Virus record (IMG/VR): IMGVR_UViG_2880372215_000004
Source: a virus
Taxonomy: Duplodnaviria > Heunggongvirae > Uroviricota > Caudoviricetes
DNA length: 64,000 nt
Strand: one strand, 5' to 3'
Shown: positions 2,794 to 29,299 of the stretch, in pieces
How the letters are laid out: each line of letters begins with the position of its first letter
Position numbering within the stretch: the first letter of the stretch is position 1
Notes under the pieces: model-generated
Told to the model about the DNA's origin: nothing
The model's database searches: none
Seen by the model: only the letters and a program-made list of their open reading frames with translations
Position numbers and translations under genes: made by a program

Positions 2794-5386
2794 TTGCATA
2801 TTCCTTAGCCCAGCGGGGCAGTGATAACGTCTTAATAGCTGGCCATTCATCGGTATTGAGGCAGTCAGCCAGGGTTCGCAGATTGCGGTGATATTCCAGC
2901 TGACCTGCCAGTTTTGCTTCTTCGCCCATCATGAAAATTTCAACCGGATAACGTCCGCATTCAATAGTTGTGCTGGCAACCAGAAAAACGAAAGTTGGCT
3001 GCACTCCAAACTGTGCTTCATAACCGTCACTGTAGAATGCATCCTGAACGTGATAGCGGTAGTCGTAATAAGCGGTTTTGAATCGTTGAATATCCGCCGT
3101 AGTTTTCACGTCCATGATCCAGTGAAATTCAGGGATAATTTTGTCCGGACGGCACCGACACAAAATTGCTGTTTCAGGATCTTCCCAGTAAATTGATGAT
3201 TCAGCGTGTCCGGCGCTTTCAACAAGCCATTGCCCCAGCGGCAAAGCCATAACGCTCTGATACATGAGTTCAATTTTCCGGCCTTCTTCGGCAGTGATAA
3301 CCGTTTTTCCTGTGCTTGCGCATTCCCTCAGAAACGCTTTCTCTTCTTCTTTTCCGGAGTTTGTCCGGCGGTTAAATTCAGGTGCTACGATAAAGCGGTT
3401 ACTGAATTCTTCCGGCTCAAGTACCCGGCAGTGGAAAGCGGTTCCTAAATCGAGCGTTTTTGTCTTTGTGGTGTCCACGGGGGCATTTTTACGCCACAAA
3501 TACAGTGCCGGAGTATCAGCAATGTCATCGAGCTGAGACTTACTGACACCGGGACCCGCGTGGTAATTCTCATTCGAAATTCCGTAATAAATACCTGGCT
3601 CTATGTCTTCTACGATTACGGGATCTGCGACTTCGCCAGTTTCATCACTGCAATCGCGATGCGGATCGCTGCCAGCATTCTCATTGTGCGGATGTTCAGC
3701 GCCTTCCATTTCCTCCGGATCATTTTCCTTAGCTTCAACCTGACTCTCTTCATCGAATGTTTCCTGGTATGTTGCGTCGCCCATCACCGCACCACAGTCA
3801 GGGCAGTTATCCCCGCCAGTCTGGCCGCAGGCATTGCAGGCTATTTCCGGTTCCTGTTGCACTACTGGCTCAGGTTGATTCATATCCGGGCTGGTTTTTT
3901 CCGTTTCTGGCTGGTTCTGGTACACACAATCGCGAGTCTGGATCCCCTTTACCCATTTCGGATCGTTCGGGTCGCTAATTCCGTCAACAAATTCACCACG
4001 TGATGCAGCAAGCAATTTATCGGCATCGACAGGATTTTTTGATGGAATGTTTTTCCGGGCTTCATGGAGTTCTGCCCGCAGTTCCTGATATTTCGCATCA
4101 ACAGAATTTACCTGTGACTGAGCATCCAGCGGCTGCGTGTCCTGATGATGTTCAGTTGCGTCCGGTTCCATTGTTTCAGCCTCTCCCTGTTCAACTGCCG
4201 TTGTTCCAGATGGTTGCGGTTTTTCTTCATCATCCTGTTTTCCTTCTTCTGTTACTCGCTGCGGCATCGGGGCAGAGGAGCGACCGCAGGCAATATCCAC
4301 GATTTCCGGATCAGGGTTGGCATGATCGGTTTCAGTCAGTACTTTGTTCAGATATTCAGTGACGTGCGCGGGGATGACCTCGATCCCAATTGGTGCTTCT
4401 TTTACGGACGCAACCACGATGGCGCGGGAATAATCCAGCCCGCCAGGCATGGTGATGAATTTGTCGCGGAAAACAGAAAAGGGCGGTTTATTTTCAGCGA
4501 TAATTTCCTCAATGCGTTTAGCGTGTGCCGGATGAAGGTTATAGATGTCCAGATCCATTGAACGGGCCAGTACGCCAGTGGCTACGTCGCGCGCCAGTGA
4601 CGTCAGATCGTGTACGAAACCTTCGCCGCGATCGGTGAGGTTTCCGCCGCCAGCATTAGCACCGGAAGCCGTGCGAGTGATGTGTGAAACACGATTACCC
4701 TTCATCCACTCTTTTGTCAGCAGTCCTCGATCGGTGTAGTCAGCGTTCAGGTATGCTTCGAAAAAAGCAGTTATCAGTCCCAGGTTTGAATTACCAGGAT
4801 TAGGGAAAACTTTGTCAGTGTCACGAACCAGTTTGTGGAGTTCGCGAATTTCCAGCGGGTCGAGCAGGCTGGTTTTGTGGGAAACAGCCAGGGCAGTAAC
4901 AGCCGGTAGTTCTTCAGCCCGAGCAATGTGTAATGCCTGGAGTCCGTCGCGTGAAACGTGCGTTACCGGTTTTTCGCTGCCGTGTTGAGCAAGCCAACGA
5001 ATGGGCAGTTCCTGGCCAGAAATTGGGAGTAGCATATTCTCCTCAATCTCAGTCATGTCTTCGCCGTTGACGTTGGTATTGCCTTGATAGTGAGCGTTGT
5101 CTGGTGCTGCTCCCGGTTTTAGTTCCCATGTCATGGAGTCTTTGCTGAGTTGATAGCGTTCACTCCAGGTAAAATCGATCTCACCTTCAGCGGGCAGGTC
5201 ATTAACGACAGGAAAATTCGTGGCAACAGCTTTAAAATAGCTGCTCAGTTTTTTACCTGACTTAACGATCAGGTAGTCCAGAGTGGCACAGGTCGATTCA
5301 AAATCGTTGCTTGCCCACAGGACGACGTCAGGTTCACCGGATGATTTTTTCGCTTTCCGTAACAGGAAGAGTGGTTTTGTGCTCAT
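2786..5386 (-). CDS. recE: RecE exonuclease VIII, 866 aa
   Basis: ORF track; sequence recognised as Rac RecE; overlaps recT start. Confidence 0.95.
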
Positions 5387-9788: not shown

Positions 9789-10535
9789 ATGAAAAATATT
9801 GCGACAGGCGGCGTTCTGGAACGTATCCGCAGACTGGCCCCGCCACATGTAACCGCGCCATTCAGGACGGTGGCGGAGTGGCGCGAGTGGCAACTTGCAG
9901 AAGGCCAGAAACGTTGTGAGGAGATCAACCGTCAGAATCGTCAGTTGCGGGTGGAAAAAATCCTGAATCGCTCCGGCATACAGCCGTTGCACCGCAAATG
10001 CTCGTTTGCGAATTACCAGGTGCAGAACGACGGCCAGCGATACGCGTTGAGTCAGGCGAAATCTATCGCTGACGAACTGGTTACCGGATGCACAAATTTC
10101 GCGTTCAGCGGAAAACCTGGTACCGGAAAAAACCATCTGGCGGCGGCTATCGGGAATCGCCTGCTGAAAGATGGCCAGACAGTGATTGTGGTTACCGTGG
10201 CTGATGTTATGAGCGCCCTGCACGCCAGCTATGACGACGGGCAGTCAGGCGAAAAATTTTTGCGGGAACTGTGCGAAGTTGATCTGCTGGTTCTTGATGA
10301 AATTGGTATTCAGCGCGAGACGAAAAACGAGCAGGTGGTACTGCACCAGATTGTTGATCGCCGGACAGCGTCAATGCGCAGCGTGGGGATGCTGACAAAC
10401 CTGAACTATGAGGCCATGAAAACATTGCTCGGCGAGCGGATTATGGATCGCATGACCATGAACGGCGGGCGCTGGGTGAATTTTAACTGGGAGAGCTGGC
10501 GCCCGAATGTTGGTCAGCCAGGTATTGAGAAGTAA
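9789..10535 (+). CDS. ydaV: DnaC-like helicase loader YdaV, 248 aa, Walker [12 protein letters not shown]
   Basis: ORF track; P-loop and DnaC-like layout. Confidence 0.85.
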
Positions 10536-10557
10536 TTTTTACCGGGAGGAAATTTTA

Positions 10558-19950: not shown

Positions 19951-20281
19951 CGGTAAAACTGCGCCTGGCTGTGGCTGCACTCCTGCTGTTTCTGGTGGTG
20001 ATGGTGGATTTCACCAGCAGAATCATGTCGGTGCTGGCGGATGGGGTGCTGGTCTGCGGCATTGTGGTATTGCTGTGGCCGGTGATAAAAAGAAACAGCC
20101 TGCATAATGCTTGATTTTTTTGTTTGCTGTTTATTAAAAACACTTCTGCATGGTGAATCCCCCTGTGCGGAGGGGCGATCAGCAACCAGGTATATGGGAT
20201 AATCGCGGATTCAGGTGCTGATACTGAATTCACCGGGAGGCACCCGGCACCATGCAAGAAAAAGAATGTGCATGCAAACAT

Positions 20282-20305
20282 GCCCCTCTCCGGAGGGGCT
20301 TTTTT
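20282..20305 (+). terminator. rho-independent terminator (GCCCCTC-tccg-GAGGGGC plus TTTTTT)
   Basis: Perfect 7-bp GC stem and T6 in the non-coding gap before the esterase gene. Confidence 0.7.
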
Positions 20306-20524
20306 ATGGGTAAAAAATGCCCGAATGGGTTCGGGCAATAGCATGAGATACTGATATTGTTGTGTTGTTATCGTGTGGATTTTAACCAGGGTTTATCAGG
20401 CTGCGCAACTGCGTGGCCTTTTTTCATTTCTTGGGCTGTAGTCCCCGAGTGTCATTCAGGCTTCCGGACTACAGCCAGCCCACTCCATATCTGATTTAAT
20501 ACACTATCCCGGCCGGGAGGAATA

Positions 20525-22378
20525 ATGACATTTAAACATTATGATGTTGTCAGGGCGGCGTCGCCGTCAGACCTTGCGGAAAAGCTGACACACAAACTGA
20601 AAGAGGGCTGGCAGCCATACGGCGGACCGGTTGCCATTACGCCGTACACACTGATGCAGGCGGTGGCTATTGAAGGAGAGCCACAGGTCGGCCCTTCATC
20701 TGAGCCGGATTGGTACTACGTCATCGTACTGGCCGGGCAGTCCAATGCCATGGCTTACGGTGAAGGGCTTCCGCTGCCGGATTCATACGATGCTCCGGAT
20801 CCGCGCATTAAACAGCTGGCGCGCCGCAGTACAGTGACGCCGGGCGGGGCTGCCTGCAGATATAACGATATTATTCCGGCTGACCACTGTCTGCATGATG
20901 TGCAGGATATGAGTACGCTGAATCATCCGAGGGCTGACCTGAGCAAAGGGCAGTACGGCTGTGTCGGCCAGGGTTTACATATTGCCAAAAAACTGCTCCC
21001 GTATATCCCGAATAACGCGGGGATCCTGCTGGTACCATGCTGTCGTGGTGGTTCGGCATTTACCCAGGGCGCGGAGGGGACATTCAGCGAGTCCACGGGG
21101 GCCAGTCAGGATTCGGCACGCTGGGGGGTGGGCAAGCCGTTATATCAGGATCTGATTTCCCGCACAAAAGCGGCATTGCAGAAAAATCCCAAAAACGTTC
21201 TGCTGGCCGTCTGCTGGATGCAGGGTGAGTTTGACATGAGCGCCGCCACCCACGCACAGCAACCTGCGCTGTTTACAGCCATGCTGACACAGTTTCGTGC
21301 TGACCTCTCCGTGTTTAACGCGCAGTGCCATGGTGGCAGCGCTGCAGATGTGCCGTGGATTTGTGGTGACACGACGTATTACTGGAAAAATACATACGCT
21401 ACCCAATACGACACCGTGTACGGCGGGTATAAAAACAGGGAGAGTGAGGGCGTTTATTTTGTGCCCTTCATGACAGACGGTAACGGCGTCAATACCGCCA
21501 CTAACGCGCCGGCAGAAGATCCGGATATTCCGGCATCAGGATATTACGGTGCGGCATCGAGAACGAATGGAAACCAGGTATCATCAAACCGCCCGACACA
21601 TTTCAGTTCATGGGCGCGCAGGAGCATTATTCCGGATCGTCTGGCAACCGCTATTCTGAACGCAGCCGGGCGCACCTCCGCCTTCATCAGTGGTAAGGCA
21701 CCGGAAATCAAACCCTCGCCCGGCGGCAACACGCCATCGGGTCCGTCTGCAGATACGTCCGTTCGCACAATCTCCCTGCTGCCGGCAGCCGGAGAGGCTG
21801 CTGCGCAGGGCTGGAGCATTAAGGATGGCGGAATTCAGTTGTCAGATGGTGTATTTAAGATCACCAGGCAGAGCAATAAAACCTGGTCCCTGACGCATCC
21901 GGTGGATGACGCAATTACCCTGCTGACACAGGGCGGCAGACTGAACTGTAAGTTCCGCCTGTCAGGCGCACTGACCAACAATCAGTTCGGGCTGGGGATT
22001 TATCTGTATACGGATGCTCCCGTTCCTGATGGTGTGGCGATGACGGGTACCGGTAATCCGTTCCTGATGTCGTACTTCACTCAGACCACTGACGGCAGAG
22101 TGAATCTGATGCATCACAGGAAAGCCGGAAACACGAAGCTGGGGGAGTTCGGCGATTACGGTAACGACTGGCAGACGCTGGAGCTGGTGTTCACCGCCGG
22201 CAGTGCCACGGTTACTCCGAAACTGAATGGAGTGGCTGGCCCGGCATTCCAGGTTATAAAAGACAGTCTGACACTGGGACTGAATGCGCTGACGCTGACG
22301 GATGTTACAAAAAATGCAGCGTATGGCGTTGAGATAGAAAGTCTGGTGCTGGAGATAAATGCACCGGCATCATCATAA
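20525..22378 (+). CDS. nanS-p: prophage sialate O-acetylesterase (NanS-p type), 617 aa
   Basis: [11 protein letters not shown] esterase motif; GGGAGG Shine-Dalgarno; typical position between tRNAs and lysis genes. Confidence 0.8.
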
Positions 22379-22527
22379 AAAGTGAGCCAGTCAAATGGAA
22401 GGTATCGTTAAACTCACCGGTAGTGTCAGTGGGTCGTCTGAGACGCCTGCATGAGTTATCAGAGCCATCAGTAGTTAACTGGTGGCTTTTTTATTGTTGT
22501 CAGCTTCCGGATAACGGGAGACGGGGT

Positions 22528-22743
22528 ATGTACCAGATGGAAAAAATCACAACAGGTGTGTCATACACCACGTCAGCGGTAGGGACGGGATACTGGTTAC
22601 TGCAACTGCTGGACAAAGTCTCTCCGTCCCAGTGGGTGGCAATAGGTGTACTGGGGAGTCTGCTGTTTGGCCTGCTGACGTATCTGACTAACCTGTATTT
22701 CAAAATCAGGGAGGACCGCCGTAAGACGGCGCGGGGAGACTAA
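22528..22743 (+). CDS. S: holin, S21-type pinholin-like, 71 aa with dual-start MYQM
   Basis: ORF 22423..22743; internal ATG 22528; two hydrophobic segments; precedes SAR endolysin. Confidence 0.8.
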
Positions 22744-22747
22744 AGCG

Positions 22748-23092
22748 ATGAAGAAAAAATACGAACTGGTTGTTAAAGAGATAAATAATTACCCGGATAA
22801 GATTGCTGTTACTGTGGCACTTGAAATTGGCGGGCATCCGTCGTTGTTGTTGCCACATGTGGCGATTAGTCTTGACCGTACTGAAGGTGCCACGCTGGAG
22901 TTTTACGAAGCTGAGGCGAAAAAGCAGGCGAAGCAGTTTTTCATGGATGTTGCTGCCGGGTTATGTGAAGGGGATGGTCCGTTACCGGAAAAGCGTCCCG
23001 TAATTTTAGAGGCGCAGGATGTGTTGATAACCTACAGAGGAAAACTACCGGGAATAATTACGGGTTCTCTGAAGACTCCACCGCTGGCCTGA
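22748..23092 (+). CDS. hypothetical protein, 114 aa
   Basis: ORF track only. Confidence 0.5.
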   Translation: MKKKYELVVKEINNYPDKIAVTVALEIGGHPSLLLPHVAISLDRTEGATLEFYEAEAKKQAKQFFMDVAAGLCEGDGPLPEKRPVILEAQDVLITYRGKLPGIITGSLKTPPLA

Positions 23093-23142
23093 AGACTTAA
23101 CATATCCAGGGATTTGAAATCGATAAACCCTGATAAATATCC

Positions 23143-23676
23143 ATGAACGCAAAAATCAGATACGGCCTGTCGGCTGCCGTTCTGGCGCTGATTGCCGCAG
23201 GTGCGCCTGCGCCTGAAATCCTCGACCAGTTTCTGGATGAAAAGGAAGGTAACCACACCACAGCATACCGTGATGGTGCGGGTATCTGGACCATCTGCCG
23301 TGGAGCCACCCGGGTGGATGGTAAGCCTGTTATTCCTGGCATGAAGCTGTCGAAGGAAAAATGCGACCGGGTTAACGCCATTGAGCGTGATAAGGCGCTG
23401 GCATGGGTGGAGAAAAACATCAGAGTGCCACTGACCGAACCCCAGAAAGCGGGGATTGCGTCATTCTGTCCGTACAACATTGGCCCCGGTAAGTGTTTCC
23501 CGTCGACGTTTTATAAACGAATTAATGCAGGAGATCGAAAAGGTGCCTGCGAAGCGATTCGCTGGTGGATTAAGGACGGTGGCAGAGACTGCCGTATTCG
23601 CTCAAATAACTGTTATGGTCAGGTATCCCGTCGTGACCAGGAGAGCGCGCTGGCGTGCTGGGGAATCGACAGATAA
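23143..23676 (+). CDS. R: SAR endolysin (lysozyme-like), 177 aa, N-terminal signal-anchor-release segment
   Basis: ORF track; hydrophobic Gly/Ala-rich N-terminus; lysis-cassette position. Confidence 0.8.
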   Translation: MNAKIRYGLSAAVLALIAAGAPAPEILDQFLDEKEGNHTTAYRDGAGIWTICRGATRVDGKPVIPGMKLSKEKCDRVNAIERDKALAWVEKNIRVPLTEPQKAGIASFCPYNIGPGKCFPSTFYKRINAGDRKGACEAIRWWIKDGGRDCRIRSNNCYGQVSRRDQESALACWGIDR

Positions 23677-23949
23677 GCAGAATATTTTGCTGAAAAATGA
23701 CGTTGGCCAGCGCGGGCGGATAACACGAAATCCTGCGAACTGGCAAAATGTAAGTGAATAAAGTTAGGCAGATTATTTCACGCAGAGGCACCGTAATGGT
23801 GCCTTTGTCATTTCTGCGCTTCGCACAAGCGTAAATAAACCAAAGAACCTTTCAGGATGAGCCCTGGTGGATAACCGGCAGTGGTCTGGTTAACCCTCTT
23901 TGGGCTGGTTATTCCTGTGCGCAGGGTTCATCACTAAAAGGAATCAACC

Positions 23950-24645
23950 ATGAAAGAGATGATTTCTGTCGATCATGAAATATCCATGAGTAGTCTGGAT
24001 TTTCTGAATAACATTATTAATCCAGCCCGGGCAGAAGCCGGAGAAGTCCCTCATGAACCGCGTAAGTTTCTTGCAAAAATTGAGGATGAGCTAGAGCTTG
24101 ATGGAACCGGAAAAAAATTCCGGTTAAACAATAACCAGACAAGAACGGCATACTATGATCTGGATTTTGACCAGATGATGCTCGTTGGCATGAGGGAGTC
24201 AAAGGCCGTTCGTCGTTCTGTGCTGGCAAGACTCAAAGCGATGCATGGTATTCAGATCCCCCGGACTTTACCTGAGGCGTTGCGATTTGCGGCAAAACTG
24301 GCTGAACAGAAAGCAGTGCTGGAAAATCAACTGGCAATAGCAGCGCCGAAGGCTGAATTTGTTGATAACTATGTTGAAGCATCTGGTCTGATGGGATTCC
24401 GGGAAGTTGCTAAGTTACTCGGTATCAAAGAAACCGATTTCCGGCTGTTTTTGTTGGAGAACGGAATAATGTATCGCCTCGCTGGAAAAATGACGCCTTA
24501 CTCGCATCACCTGGATGCGGGGCGGTTTAGCGTGAAAACGGGCGAGGCGGGCAATGGTCATGCTTTTACGCAGGTTAAATTCACCCCAAAAGGTGTTCAG
24601 TGGATTGCTGGTCTGCTTGCTGCATGGAGAGCTACCGCAGCATGA
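23950..24645 (+). CDS. ant: phage antirepressor (Ant/KilAC-domain-like), 231 aa
   Basis: ORF track; sits between endolysin and Rz. Confidence 0.65.
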   Translation: MKEMISVDHEISMSSLDFLNNIINPARAEAGEVPHEPRKFLAKIEDELELDGTGKKFRLNNNQTRTAYYDLDFDQMMLVGMRESKAVRRSVLARLKAMHGIQIPRTLPEALRFAAKLAEQKAVLENQLAIAAPKAEFVDNYVEASGLMGFREVAKLLGIKETDFRLFLLENGIMYRLAGKMTPYSHHLDAGRFSVKTGEAGNGHAFTQVKFTPKGVQWIAGLLAAWRATAA

Positions 24646-24882
24646 AGATGATAAAAACGGACTGGAAATTTTTGCTGGTCTGGCTGATTCCGTTTTTATG
24701 GGTGGTTGCCCGGTTAATTACTGCTATTAAGGGGTAAAGATGTCAGACAAACTCATAATGCTGGCGAAGGGCCTTTGTGTAATCGTCGGTATTTCATTTT
24801 CACTAATGCTGGTTGTTCTTTTTCTTTCCATAACCTGGATGGCGTTGACTTCGGCAGGGCTGGTGGGGTGAGCATAAACCGA

Positions 24883-25341
24883 ATGCTTTCCGCGTTTACC
24901 GTTATTCTGCTGGTGGTCTGTGGTGCGCTTAGTCTGGGGCTGAATCATTACCGCGATAACGTCATCACCTACAAAGCGCAGCGCGATAAAAAAGCCAGAG
25001 AGCTGGAGCTGGCAAACGCAACCATTACTGATATGCAGGTGCGCCAGCGCGATGTTGCTGCGCTCGATGCAAAATACTCGAGGGAATTAGCCGATGCGAG
25101 AGCTGAAAATGAAACTCTGCGTGCTGATGTTGCCGCTGGTCGTAAGCGCCTGCGGATCAACGCCACCTGCTCCGGTACCGTGCGTGAAGCCACCGGCACC
25201 TCCGGCGTGGATAATGCAACCGTCCCCCGACTGGCAGACACCGCTGAACGGGATTATTTCATCCTCAGAGAACGGTTGATGACAATGCAGAAGCAGCTGG
25301 AAGGGGCACAGGACTATATCCGCACTCAGTGCCTGAACTAA
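24883..25341 (+). CDS. Rz: i-spanin Rz, 152 aa from MLSAF (GTG at 24868 possible)
   Basis: ORF 24775..25341; N-terminal TM then NHYRDN..YKAQRDK lambda Rz-like sequence. Confidence 0.8.
   Translation: MLSAFTVILLVVCGALSLGLNHYRDNVITYKAQRDKKARELELANATITDMQVRQRDVAALDAKYSRELADARAENETLRADVAAGRKRLRINATCSGTVREATGTSGVDNATVPRLADTAERDYFILRERLMTMQKQLEGAQDYIRTQCLN
25094..25279 (+). CDS. Rz1: o-spanin Rz1 lipoprotein, 61 aa, embedded in +1 frame of Rz
   Basis: ORF track; lipobox LVVSAC; proline-rich. Confidence 0.8.
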   Translation: MRELKMKLCVLMLPLVVSACGSTPPAPVPCVKPPAPPAWIMQPSPDWQTPLNGIISSSENG

Positions 25342-25673
25342 GTTTTGCTGATGCGCCGTATCGTCGCTGTATTCCCTCATTAACAGAGACCGCAGCCCGA
25401 CAGGGAGACTCCTCTGCGCGAGTGTGCGGGGAGAATCAAAAACGATACGCACCGGGGTTTACCGCGTTAACGGAGCGCGGCGTTGTCCCCTCATGGTCGC
25501 TGGTTCGGTGCGATGGTGGAAGAAACCGGACGATGTGTTACCTCGCAAGACCTGTTATGTCATGTGTCTGATTTGTGATTTAAGTCGGATAATTGTCGTT
25601 GCCATTAAGCAGAGGATTGATGGCCGACAGGGTGGCATTGTTAGAATAAGACTTATTCTTATCTGTGCCGGGA

Positions 25674-26006
25674 ATGAAAATGAAAAGAAATCTTCCGTTA
25701 ATTATTTTGTTGTCTTCTCTGGTTATGGGCTGTACGCAACATAAAACAGATATGCCCCGACAGTTGGTTAAGGCATTACCACAATATCCGGCCTATGCAG
25801 CGGCAAATTATATAAAGGGACGGGTTGATGTGAAGTTTGATATTGGTGCTGATGGTACTGTCACCCGAATTGAGTTTATCCGTTCAGAGCCGCACCATCT
25901 GTTTGATGAGCAGGTTGTAAAGGCGATGGCAAAATGGCGATTTGAGAAGGACAGGCCGCGTAAAGGCGTGAAGAAAACGTTTATCTTTAGTCCTTCTGCA
26001 CCCTGA
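25674..26006 (+). CDS. lipoprotein with TonB C-terminal-like domain, about 110 aa (start 25674 or 25680)
   Basis: ORF 25665..26006; lipobox LVMGC; C-terminal YPAYAAANYIKGRVDVKFDIGADGTV...AMAKWRF. Confidence 0.6.
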   Translation: MKMKRNLPLIILLSSLVMGCTQHKTDMPRQLVKALPQYPAYAAANYIKGRVDVKFDIGADGTVTRIEFIRSEPHHLFDEQVVKAMAKWRFEKDRPRKGVKKTFIFSPSAP

Positions 26007-26137
26007 TTATTTCATCAGAAATTAATTATCACTCTGTTGTTATTCTGTACATTCCGGCTGGGTAAGTCTTGTTCCGCCGGGTATGAAGATGAAATATTGT
26101 TGGAGGACAGTGGGTACCTGCTCCTGTAACCGAACGT

Positions 26138-26338
26138 TCATTTCTCGTTATTTGTCATGCTGGCCGGACGCAGATGCGTTGCATCTGTTGCCAGCCTTCT
26201 CCTGCAGGCTTCAATAACCCACGCTGAAAAGTTACCGGAACCTTTATGTTCAAGGGCGATATTGATCTGTTCAATCATGTGATTGGGGAAACGGATATTG
26301 CGGGTTGTGGTTCTGCGGGTCCGGTTTTTCGATGACAT
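26138..26338 (-). CDS. small basic putative DNA-binding protein, 66 aa from MSSKNRT
   Basis: ORF 26138..26398; AAGGAA 6 nt before internal ATG; divergent from HNH gene. Confidence 0.5.
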   Translation of the reverse strand: MSSKNRTRRTTTRNIRFPNHMIEQINIALEHKGSGNFSAWVIEACRRRLATDATHLRPASMTNNEK

Positions 26339-26379
26339 ATTTATTTCCTTTACTGATTGCCATATGACGGGGATTTTAC

Positions 26380-26745
26380 ATGGCTGAGCTTCGTACACTC
26401 CAGAGCAGAATCAAAACACTGAATACCCGACGGGTGAATATTCTGAAGGGTGAACAGCGTCGTGTCAGTGGCAGTGCACGTGTTTCCCTCAAGCGTCATA
26501 TCTGGCTCAGGGATGCCGGGCAGTGCTGTCTCTGTGGTCGTGTGGTTGACCTCTGTGACAGTGAACTCGATCACCGAATTGCACTTCAGTTCGGTGGTGG
26601 TAATGAGGAGACGAATCTCTGGACGCTCTGTACCGAATGCCATCGACAAAAGTCTGCTCGTGAAGCGGCGGGTGGTATGCCGGACCCGACGCTGCCGGAG
26701 GTGTCCGGAGGTAGTGGCAGAGCGGACGACATCATCGGACTGTAA
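26380..26745 (+). CDS. HNH endonuclease (terminase-associated type), 121 aa
   Basis: CCLCGR...LDHRIALQFGGGNEETNLWTLCTECHRQK. Confidence 0.8.
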   Translation: MAELRTLQSRIKTLNTRRVNILKGEQRRVSGSARVSLKRHIWLRDAGQCCLCGRVVDLCDSELDHRIALQFGGGNEETNLWTLCTECHRQKSAREAAGGMPDPTLPEVSGGSGRADDIIGL

Positions 26746-26835
26746 CCCGAGCGGGGGGGTATCATCCGGCGTAAAAAACGATCGCTCCGGACACCGCGCC
26801 CCCTCTCACGCAGAGAAAAAATTCCCGTTTCAGGG

Positions 26836-26959
26836 CAGTTAACATGTTAACTGGCTGTCCGGGCATTTTTGCGGTTTTTATCTTTATTATTCAGTTTGTT
26901 GTGCGAAAAAAATGTTAACTGGCTTTTTCATCAAATGTTAACCAGGCAGCAGTTAACAT
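26836..26959. repeat. cluster of ATGTTAACTG motifs incl. perfect 18-bp palindrome CAGTTAACATGTTAACTG (26836-26853); copies at 26912, 26935 and inverted at 26950
   Basis: Read in sequence between HNH and terminase small-subunit genes. Confidence 0.6.
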
Positions 26960-27033
26960 TTGCGGCATGAGACGCCGGGAAAAATGGGCTGAACCATACC
27001 CGGCTGAGTGCGTTCTGGACCCGGGAGGAGGCT

Positions 27034-27597
27034 GTGCTGACAACGCAAAAACGAAAATTTGCGCTGGCGCTCATGTCCGGGAAAAACAAAACAGCGTCAG
27101 CCATTGCCGCTGGTTATTCGGCGAAGACCGCCAGGGTTAAAGGCTCGCAGCTGGCAAAAGATCCGGAGGTGCTTGCGTTTATAGCCCGTAAACAATGCGA
27201 GACGGTGGAGGTGGATGAGGTTCCTGTTTACCGGCAGAAAAAATCAGAGCAGGAGGATAAACCCCGTCGCCGTGAGGCGGCTGCAATACCACAGCCGGAC
27301 GAAAACAATCCGGAGATGCCACCGTCCGCGGTGATGTCTCCTGGTATTGAATATATGGAGGATGGTCTTCCCGATCCGGTGAAAGCGATGGGGCGTCTTC
27401 TGGTGGAGAACATTAATACCGACCCCAGGCTGGCGCTGGATGCGGCTTATAAGCTGGCGCAGTTCACGCACCATAAAAAAGGGGATGCCGGTAAAAAATC
27501 GGCAAAAGGTGACGCGGCGAAAAAAGCGGCTAACCGTTTTGCGGTGCCACCACCACCCCGCCTGGTGGTGAATAATGATAATGAGGGCAACGGATGA
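27034..27597 (+). CDS. terminase small subunit, 187 aa, GTG start
   Basis: ORF track; GGAGGAGG before GTG; ATGA coupling to large-subunit start. Confidence 0.7.
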   Translation: MLTTQKRKFALALMSGKNKTASAIAAGYSAKTARVKGSQLAKDPEVLAFIARKQCETVEVDEVPVYRQKKSEQEDKPRRREAAAIPQPDENNPEMPPSAVMSPGIEYMEDGLPDPVKAMGRLLVENINTDPRLALDAAYKLAQFTHHKKGDAGKKSAKGDAAKKAANRFAVPPPPRLVVNNDNEGNG

Positions 27598-29236
27598 TAC
27601 CTGTGTGGAGCACGGCCTGCCCGGACTGGGCAGAGCGCCTGAAAAAGGGGCTGTCGATTATTCCGGCTCCGATTTATCCGGACAGGCTGCACATGCACTG
27701 GCGATTTTTAAACAACTGCGATTGTGGATGCACCGGGTAGCCCGACATTCGGGGAGTCCTGCGCACCGTGGGTGTTTGACCTGGTGGCGGCCCTGTTTGG
27801 CTCCTACGATGCGCAGACCGGTGTTCGCCATATCAAGGAAGTTTTATCCTTATCCCCAAGAAAAACTCGAAGTCCACGCTGGCTGCGGGATCATGATGAC
27901 GGCGCTGTTACTGAACTGGCGGCAGGCGGCGGGCTACACCATTCTGGCCCCGACCGTGGAGGTGGCGGCTAACGCCTTCAACCCTGCCAGGGATATGGTA
28001 CGACGGGACGATGATCTGGATGACCTCTGTCAGGTGCAGACACATATCCGGACCATCACCCATCGGGTGACGGACACCACCCTGAAGGTGGTGGCTGCCG
28101 ATCCGAATACGGTGTCCGGTATCAAGTCCGTGGGGACGCTGATTGATGAACTGTGGTGTTTGGCAAGCAGTACAAGCGGAGACATGTACGTGAAGCCATC
28201 GGCGGCTTGCCTCCCGCCGGAAGGGTTTGTGGTGTATACGACCACCCAGTCGAATGAACCGCCCGCCGGGGTGTTCAGACAGAAACTGCAGTATGCCCGG
28301 GATGTCGCGACGGCAAAATTCATGATCCGCACTTTCTGCCGGTGATTTTTGAGCATCCTCCTGAAATGGTGGAAAGCGGGGCTCACCTGCTGATGGAAAA
28401 CCTCGCCATGGTTAACCCGAATCTCGGTTATTCGGTGGATGAGGCTTTCTGTACCGGGAGTACCGTAAAGCCCGGGAGGCTGGTGAGGAAGCATTTCGTG
28501 GCTTCATGTCAAAACATGCCAATGTGGAAATTGGTCTTGCCCTGCGTTCTGACCGCTGGGCGGGCGCGGATTTCTGGGAGCAGCAGGGCAGGCGCGTCAG
28601 CCTGGACGATATCCTGCAGCGCGCTGATGTGGTGACGGTGGGGATTGACGGCGGGGGCCTGGATGATCTGCTGGGAATGTACGTGATTGGCCGTGACAGG
28701 GAAACCCGCGAATGGCTGGGCTGGGGCCATGCCTGGGCGCATGAAACCGCGGTGGTCGACGGAAGAGCGAGGCGTCCCGGTTTCAGGATTTGTGCCTGTG
28801 GAGATATGACGATTGTCCGTCGGTCGGGGATGACACGGCGGAAGTGGCGGAATATGTGCGTCGCATTCATGAGGCTGAGTTACTGGACATATCGGTATTG
28901 ACCCGTCAGGGTGGGGCAGATTCTGGATTCACTGGCGGAAGCCGGGATCCCCGACGGAATGTGGTGGGGATAAGCCAGGGCTGGAAACTGGGCGGGGCCA
29001 TTAAAACCACCGAGCGCAAACTGGCTGAAGGGGTGCTGATGCATGGTGACCAGCCCCTGATGGCCTGGTGTGTCGGCAATGCCCGGGTGGAGCCTAAAGG
29101 TAACGCCATTCTTATCACCAAACAGGCCAGTGGACGGGGAAAAATTGACCCGCTGATGGCGCTGTTCAATGCGGTCTCCCTGATGTCCCTTAACCCGGAA
29201 CCGAAAAAGAAAGAATATGCGGTTTTTTTCATATAA
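27594..29236 (+). pseudogene. terminase large subunit, reading frame broken into at least six pieces
   Basis: Terminase-like peptides alternate between frames in ORFs 27724.., 27575.., 28342.., 28506.., 28790.. Confidence 0.7.
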
Positions 29237-29299
29237 CCCTGTTCACACTGTAACCATCATGAACCGCTGCGGCGGTTTTTTTATTTTCAGGAGGCTGAT

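Follow-up and report, generated by a model that had tools for sequence, protein, structure and literature searches.

Nineteen single-base deletions at paralogue-variable sites of a prophage terminase gene point to a consensus-calling artefact

The large terminase gene (terL) at 27594-29236 (+) of the window, the 64,000-nucleotide stretch of DNA analysed here, lacks 19 single bases, and comparison with natural copies of the gene makes it very probable that the breakage is a consensus-calling artefact of genome assembly and not a biological pseudogene. The gene belongs to an E. coli O157-type lambdoid prophage with nleA, nleH and nleF. All 19 terL deletions, together with five further ones in the same prophage, fall on columns at which paralogous copies differ, and the remaining bases of terL are explained by one or other of two alleles, referred to as A (this nleA prophage) and B (Sp12-like). 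The terL present in the cell would be an intact gene of 1662 nt encoding 553 aa, and the consensus fits a true locus that is pure A equally with one that is a real A/B recombinant.

Identity and extent of the broken gene

Six terminase-like peptide stretches in alternating frames were picked out in the initial annotation and all six were found in their places (ORFs 27594-27740, 27724-27972, 27575-28345, 28342-28635, 28506-28901 and 28790-29236). Their assignment to terL was borne out using Pfam with its curated gathering cut-offs, which are 23.7 for TerL_ATPase (PF03354) and 24 for TerL_nuclease (PF20441). The intact copy from the same locus of E. coli NCCP 15739 (L003, 17595-19256, 553 aa) matched TerL_ATPase at 44.7 bits and TerL_nuclease at 39.1 bits, and the last terL fragment of the window (28790-29236) has retained a TerL_nuclease match of 29.1 bits, above the cut-off. 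Synteny of the packaging module is likewise preserved. An intact HNH endonuclease gene (26380-26745) lies upstream of an intact small terminase gene, terS (27034-27597, +; Terminase_2, PF03592), which is identical to copy A (WP_000958380.1 in NCCP 15739), while terL is followed by an intact prohead protease/major capsid fusion of the B-type allele (29300-31237, +; Peptidase_S78 and Phage_capsid) and then by the portal gene.

The prophage as a whole is colinear with the NCCP 15739 prophage. Cargo genes for the type III effectors nleA, nleH1-2 and nleF are located in the region of 47961-52659 and 53625-55163, and behind these effector genes, in the same intervals, an ISEc8 (IS66-family) element lies within an IS256-family transposase remnant (names from the NCCP 15739 annotation). 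The early region contains, within 13518-17017, a DNA cytosine methyltransferase gene (+) followed on the opposite strand by genes for an O-methyltransferase and a 463-aa ATP-binding protein (names again from the NCCP 15739 annotation), a gene set with a possible role in DNA modification or defence.

As deposited, terL measures 1643 nt instead of 1662. Alignment to intact homologues, the check proposed with the initial annotation, showed that terL has lost 19 single bases between 27682 and 28959 and gained none. Global alignment against one intact copy (L001) gave the 19 single-base deletions, all of them inside terL, along with 10 substitutions and no insertions, and the identical 19 deletions were recovered against every other intact copy aligned. 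A two-copy alignment placed the junctions on the + strand after window bases 27682, 27720, 27842, 27886, 28156, 28175, 28180, 28186, 28205 and 28216 (the first ten) and 28305, 28445, 28757, 28789, 28793, 28822, 28887, 28910 and 28959 (the last nine). The coding sequence is thereby divided into 20 segments, the shortest of 4 nt and the longest of 312 nt, each junction setting the frame back by one, and breakage on this scale is far beyond chance. The breakage seen in the initial annotation is thus confirmed, whereas its count of at least five frame switches was a large underestimate of the 19 deletions and 20 segments.

A continuous frame of ~553 codons is absent from the deposited sequence and appears only once the 19 dropped bases are restored, giving a single 553-codon ORF with no stops. 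The repaired protein is 2-7 aa removed from the natural alleles, which themselves differ mutually by 8. Programmed frameshifting or recoding appears untenable given segments down to 4-6 nt, stops in every frame and intact homologues that need no such event.

Two-copy reconstruction of terL

We reconstructed terL by a constrained alignment in which every column was free to take the base of copy A or copy B. Copy A was the same prophage in NCCP 15739, whose flanks are 100% identical to the window and whose terL is intact at 1662 nt (WP_001411753.1). Copy B was the terL of the Sakai prophage Sp12 (L008), also intact at 1662 nt (ECs_2251/NP_310278.1). Both copies come from strains other than that of the source genome; EDL933 contains the two allele types together. 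The 1643-nt window terL could be rebuilt from A and B with no mismatches, no insertions and no private substitutions, its sole departures being the 19 dropped columns. All 19 deletions occupy A/B-variable columns, which account for only 62 of the 1662 columns (3.7%; hypergeometric P = 3.7e-29). At the other 43 variable sites the window has 22 A and 21 B calls, which are interleaved with many switches and grade from A to B. Read 5' to 3', with x for a dropped base, the 62 variable sites run xAAxAABAAxAAAxAABABxAxxxAxxAAAxAxBBABBxBBxxBAAxBxxBBBxBBABBBBB.

Beyond the deletions the calls are nearly uniform on either side. Upstream of 27682 the window has the A base at every A/B-variable site, and downstream of 28959 it has the B base save for one A call at 29039. 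The deletion-free stretch 28965-32530 is 100% identical to the Sp12-type copies of many O157:H7 genomes. Descent of the window terL from a single natural parent was rejected, as the best match among 5,426 genomes requires 10 substitutions and 19 gaps while two parents require no substitutions.

Random long-read or homopolymer error in a low-coverage region, with no mixing of paralogues, is in our estimation a very unlikely source of the damage. In its favour, long-read consensus sequences typically err by deletion alone, several of the sites are in short homopolymers (e.g. GGGG to GGG at 27886), and the EDL933 assembly CP008957 displays a similar cluster in which many indels are in homopolymers. 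Random error would not however pick paralogue-variable columns in 19 of 19 cases or interleave A and B calls, and many invariant homopolymers within terL are untouched.

The inter-prophage repeat and other damaged genes

All of the corrupted sites lie in an inter-prophage repeat (26204-38537) over which copy A and Sp12 share 97.2% identity for at least 12.3 kb. O157 genomes contain 3-7 copies of this packaging module each, placing the damaged block inside a repeat with at least two near-identical copies per genome. At least 60 complete genomes have the B allele with 100% identity. Comparison of the window with NCCP 15739 identified no differences over 10000-27681 (17.6 kb) and one over 36201-57999 (21.8 kb), the other 81 differences all being located within 27682-36201. 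This chimeric block proceeds from the A/B mix of terL to B-type sequence (28960-31048), then to sequence in which A and B are the same with C/D admixture (32539 and 32792), then to C-type sequence with A/B admixture (34783-35992) and finally to A. For the comparison beyond terL we added an EDL933 copy (L004) and a third natural allele (L009), the latter being 100% identical to window 34700-35840. Five further deletions unique to the window (32539, 35852, 35961, 35969 and 36201) are all on columns varying among the paralogous copies. The G5 run at 32792 and the T7 run at 35545 simply match alleles that other copies have naturally.

The portal and major tail subunit genes are both affected. The portal gene (31449-34026, +) is split into ORFs of 366 aa and 405 aa by a dropped paralogue-variable base at 32539, a site that is G in copies A and B and T in copies C and D, and by a G5/G6 allele switch at 32792. 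Copies C and D (EDL933 2023 and E2855), in which the G5 run occurs naturally, are both annotated by PGAP as 'frameshifted'. The major tail subunit gene (35568-36206, +) is frameshifted through dropped paralogue-variable bases at 35852, 35961, 35969 and 36201, and its 212-aa product (ASL59430.1, named 'Phage neck whisker protein' in the source record) is present on one contig only. The terL, portal and major tail genes of NCCP 15739 are all intact.

Two additional features of the structural genes were observed. Within the portal gene, at 32973-33566, a 162-bp (54-codon) unit occurs three times in tandem with ~89-92% identity; the three units give rise to BLAST hits off the diagonal, offset by 162 and 324, and intact reference copies have them too. 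At 46536 (ORF 45351-46934) a C5-to-C4 homopolymer difference joins the N- and C-terminal tail fibre ORFs (437 aa and 89 aa in NCCP 15739) into a 527-aa product (ASL59438.1), unique to the contig bearing the terL fragment ASL59417.1; C4 at this position may be a true variant or an error in homopolymer length.

The most probable origin of the artefact is an O157-type chromosome with several lambdoid prophages, in which the packaging and head-tail modules form repeats of >12 kb at ~97% identity. From ~1.5 kb into the repeat, reads of at least two copies, A from this nleA prophage and B from an Sp12-like one, would have been piled up together. Where the copies agree a perfect consensus would result, and where they differ the call would be A, B or, when neither has a majority, no base at all, leaving a 1-bp deletion. 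With graph-based callers of the kind that treats a mismatch as an insertion plus a deletion and demands a majority, both alleles would be skipped wherever the reads divide evenly. Repetition of this process at the B/C and C/A transitions would have given rise to the portal and major tail damage. We infer the read-mixing step and the behaviour of the caller from the signature itself, for which the observations are the positions of the deletions, the rebuilding of terL from two parents, its location in a repeat and the restriction of the broken product to one contig. A consensus of mixed copies would explain at once why the block is perfect where copies agree, why damage is found only in the repeat and recurs at allele transitions, and why it is absent from independent assemblies.

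Occurrence in other assemblies and comparison with known disruptions

To determine the distribution of the broken gene we searched genomes, proteins and junctions. A megablast search of complete RefSeq E. coli genomes using a 2401-base query found homologous sequence in 1,254 of 5,426 genomes, at 3,124 places in all, with matches extending over 2420 bases and a best identity of only 98.8%; none of the 3,124 places contained an allele comparable to the 19-deletion terL. The 48-aa N-terminal terL fragment (ASL59417.1) forms a one-member cluster among ~15 billion proteins and derives from a single contig of 5,483,726 bp, on which ASL59430.1 and ASL59438.1 are also encoded; exact-product look-ups of the broken ORFs had no contig or assembly on record. 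When 40-mers across each of the 19 terL junctions were used as queries, only seven of the 5,426 genomes were seeded, and no junction-spanning match in any record covered more than one of the 19 deletions. Intermediate terL alleles were found in relatives by none of the genome, protein-cluster and junction searches. The damage is thus not reproduced in independent close assemblies, NCCP 15739 being intact and the broken product being confined to one contig. The initial annotation held that a single open 550-aa frame on resequencing would overturn the breakage; in effect such a frame is provided, from another strain, by the independent NCCP 15739 assembly with its 100% identical flanks and intact terL.

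A few other assemblies do have single deletions at the same sites, which could represent recurrent real mutation or, fitting equally well, recurrent artefact. Three of the seven seeded genomes were aligned and each had exactly one of the 19 deletions in common with the window. In NZ_CP027555.1 and NZ_CP032797.1 the terL genes, labelled 'frameshifted' in RefSeq, have one and two single-base deletions respectively and no others. All three deletions are on A/B-variable columns (window equivalents 27886, 28852 and 28910), and their positions suggest that these genes belong to the same class of artefact in other complete genomes. In a prophage fragment of the third, the 2014 assembly of EDL933 (NZ_CP008957.1, 2314336-2319416), the terS, terL, capsid, major tail and tail chaperone genes are all 'frameshifted'. 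Its terS and terL together contain ~20 small indels, several of them at paralogue-variable sites and many in invariant homopolymers, and the damage resembles that of the window, with more noise, suggesting an assembly artefact here as well. The 2023 assembly of EDL933 is 93 kb shorter than that of 2014.

Neutral decay of terL as a real pseudogene of a defective prophage is a more conventional reading, and one we consider very improbable. Many lambdoid prophages of O157 genomes are defective, the window has breaks in this prophage's portal and major tail genes as well, and PGAP annotates frameshifted terL in other complete genomes. Decay would however be expected to leave indels of several sizes, private substitutions and breaks placed without regard to paralogue variation, and none of this was found: every indel is a 1-bp deletion, private substitutions are absent, and the 19 deletions all lie within the 3.7% of columns at which the paralogues are different, which disfavours decay at P ~1e-29. 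The ~39 kb of flanking sequence has one base difference from a strain with an intact terL, and the intermediate alleles expected of gradual decay were absent from the relatives searched. Natural inactivation of this terL takes a different form. The Sp12-type gene of dozens of cattle O157:H7 genomes (e.g. NZ_CP038423.1, 2029125-2032099) is otherwise 100% identical but split by IS1203 (IS3-family), a real and lineage-shared inactivation of the B-type terL.

A real gene-conversion tract, in which each unresolved heteroduplex mismatch between 97%-identical prophage copies was removed as a single-base deletion, would fit the deletion positions, as a heteroduplex would expose the A/B mismatches at which the deletions are exactly located, the tract is an A/B mosaic, and inter-prophage recombination is plausible in these genomes. 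We nonetheless find it barely credible. None of the E. coli pathways that process mismatches (MutSLH, VSP, MutY) is known to make 1-bp deletions from them, and a comparable allele is absent from all 3,124 places identified in 1,254 genomes. The signature moreover repeats at two further junctions with other alleles, as a caller artefact predicts, and three essential genes would have to be lost in one event. Were it true, mutagenic gene conversion could destroy repeated prophage genes in one step.

We therefore return to consensus calling across mixed copies as the reading that bears on the biology of this prophage. It was initially proposed that the phage could not package DNA if the broken terL is real. 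As a conditional this stands, whereas the truly inactivated gene that it implies does not, in view of 19 of 19 frameshifts on paralogue-variable sites, the A/B patchwork and the intact frame on repair. In all likelihood the terminase of the prophage is normal, and so the deposited sequence permits no inference on its DNA packaging or on prophage decay. More generally, caution is called for with 'complete' multi-prophage genomes, in which frameshifts of packaging, portal and tail genes can stem from cross-paralogue consensus calling. Deletions exactly at paralogue-variant sites, combined with both alleles interleaved in the kept bases, provide a signature of the artefact that needs no reads and can be used for quality control. 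Some annotated O157 prophage pseudogenes may be of this artefact kind, given that the deletions of NZ_CP027555.1 and NZ_CP032797.1, and some of those in the 2014 EDL933 assembly, are at paralogue-variable sites in terL copies that RefSeq labels 'frameshifted'.

Compared with the intact O157:H7 lambdoid terL genes (Sp12 NP_310278.1 and NCCP 15739 WP_001411753.1), the window gene has the same identity and synteny and each of its retained bases is that of one or the other, but it is without 19 bases and mixes both alleles. The O157:H7 terL split by IS1203/IS629 resembles it in that the same gene (allele B) is disrupted in a prophage. That disruption however consists of a single element shared by dozens of related strains, in contrast to 19 point deletions on one contig. 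The 2014 EDL933 assembly, also a complete one, is similar in having small indels clustered over the terS, terL, capsid and major tail genes of one prophage repeat, which are annotated as 'frameshifted'. It differs in having insertions as well as deletions, many of them in invariant homopolymers, with only some sites being paralogue-variable. Errors are known to persist or be introduced in the repeat regions of bacterial long-read assemblies (Polypolish paper, PMC8812927), and the window shares with such errors their restriction to a multi-copy repeat, perfect unique sequence, small gene-breaking indels and absence from independent assemblies. In contrast to these, the window errors are not mainly in homopolymer length, and bases are dropped exactly at paralogue-variant sites amid interleaved alleles, a combination that points to pile-ups of mixed copies and not to a mere failure of polishing.
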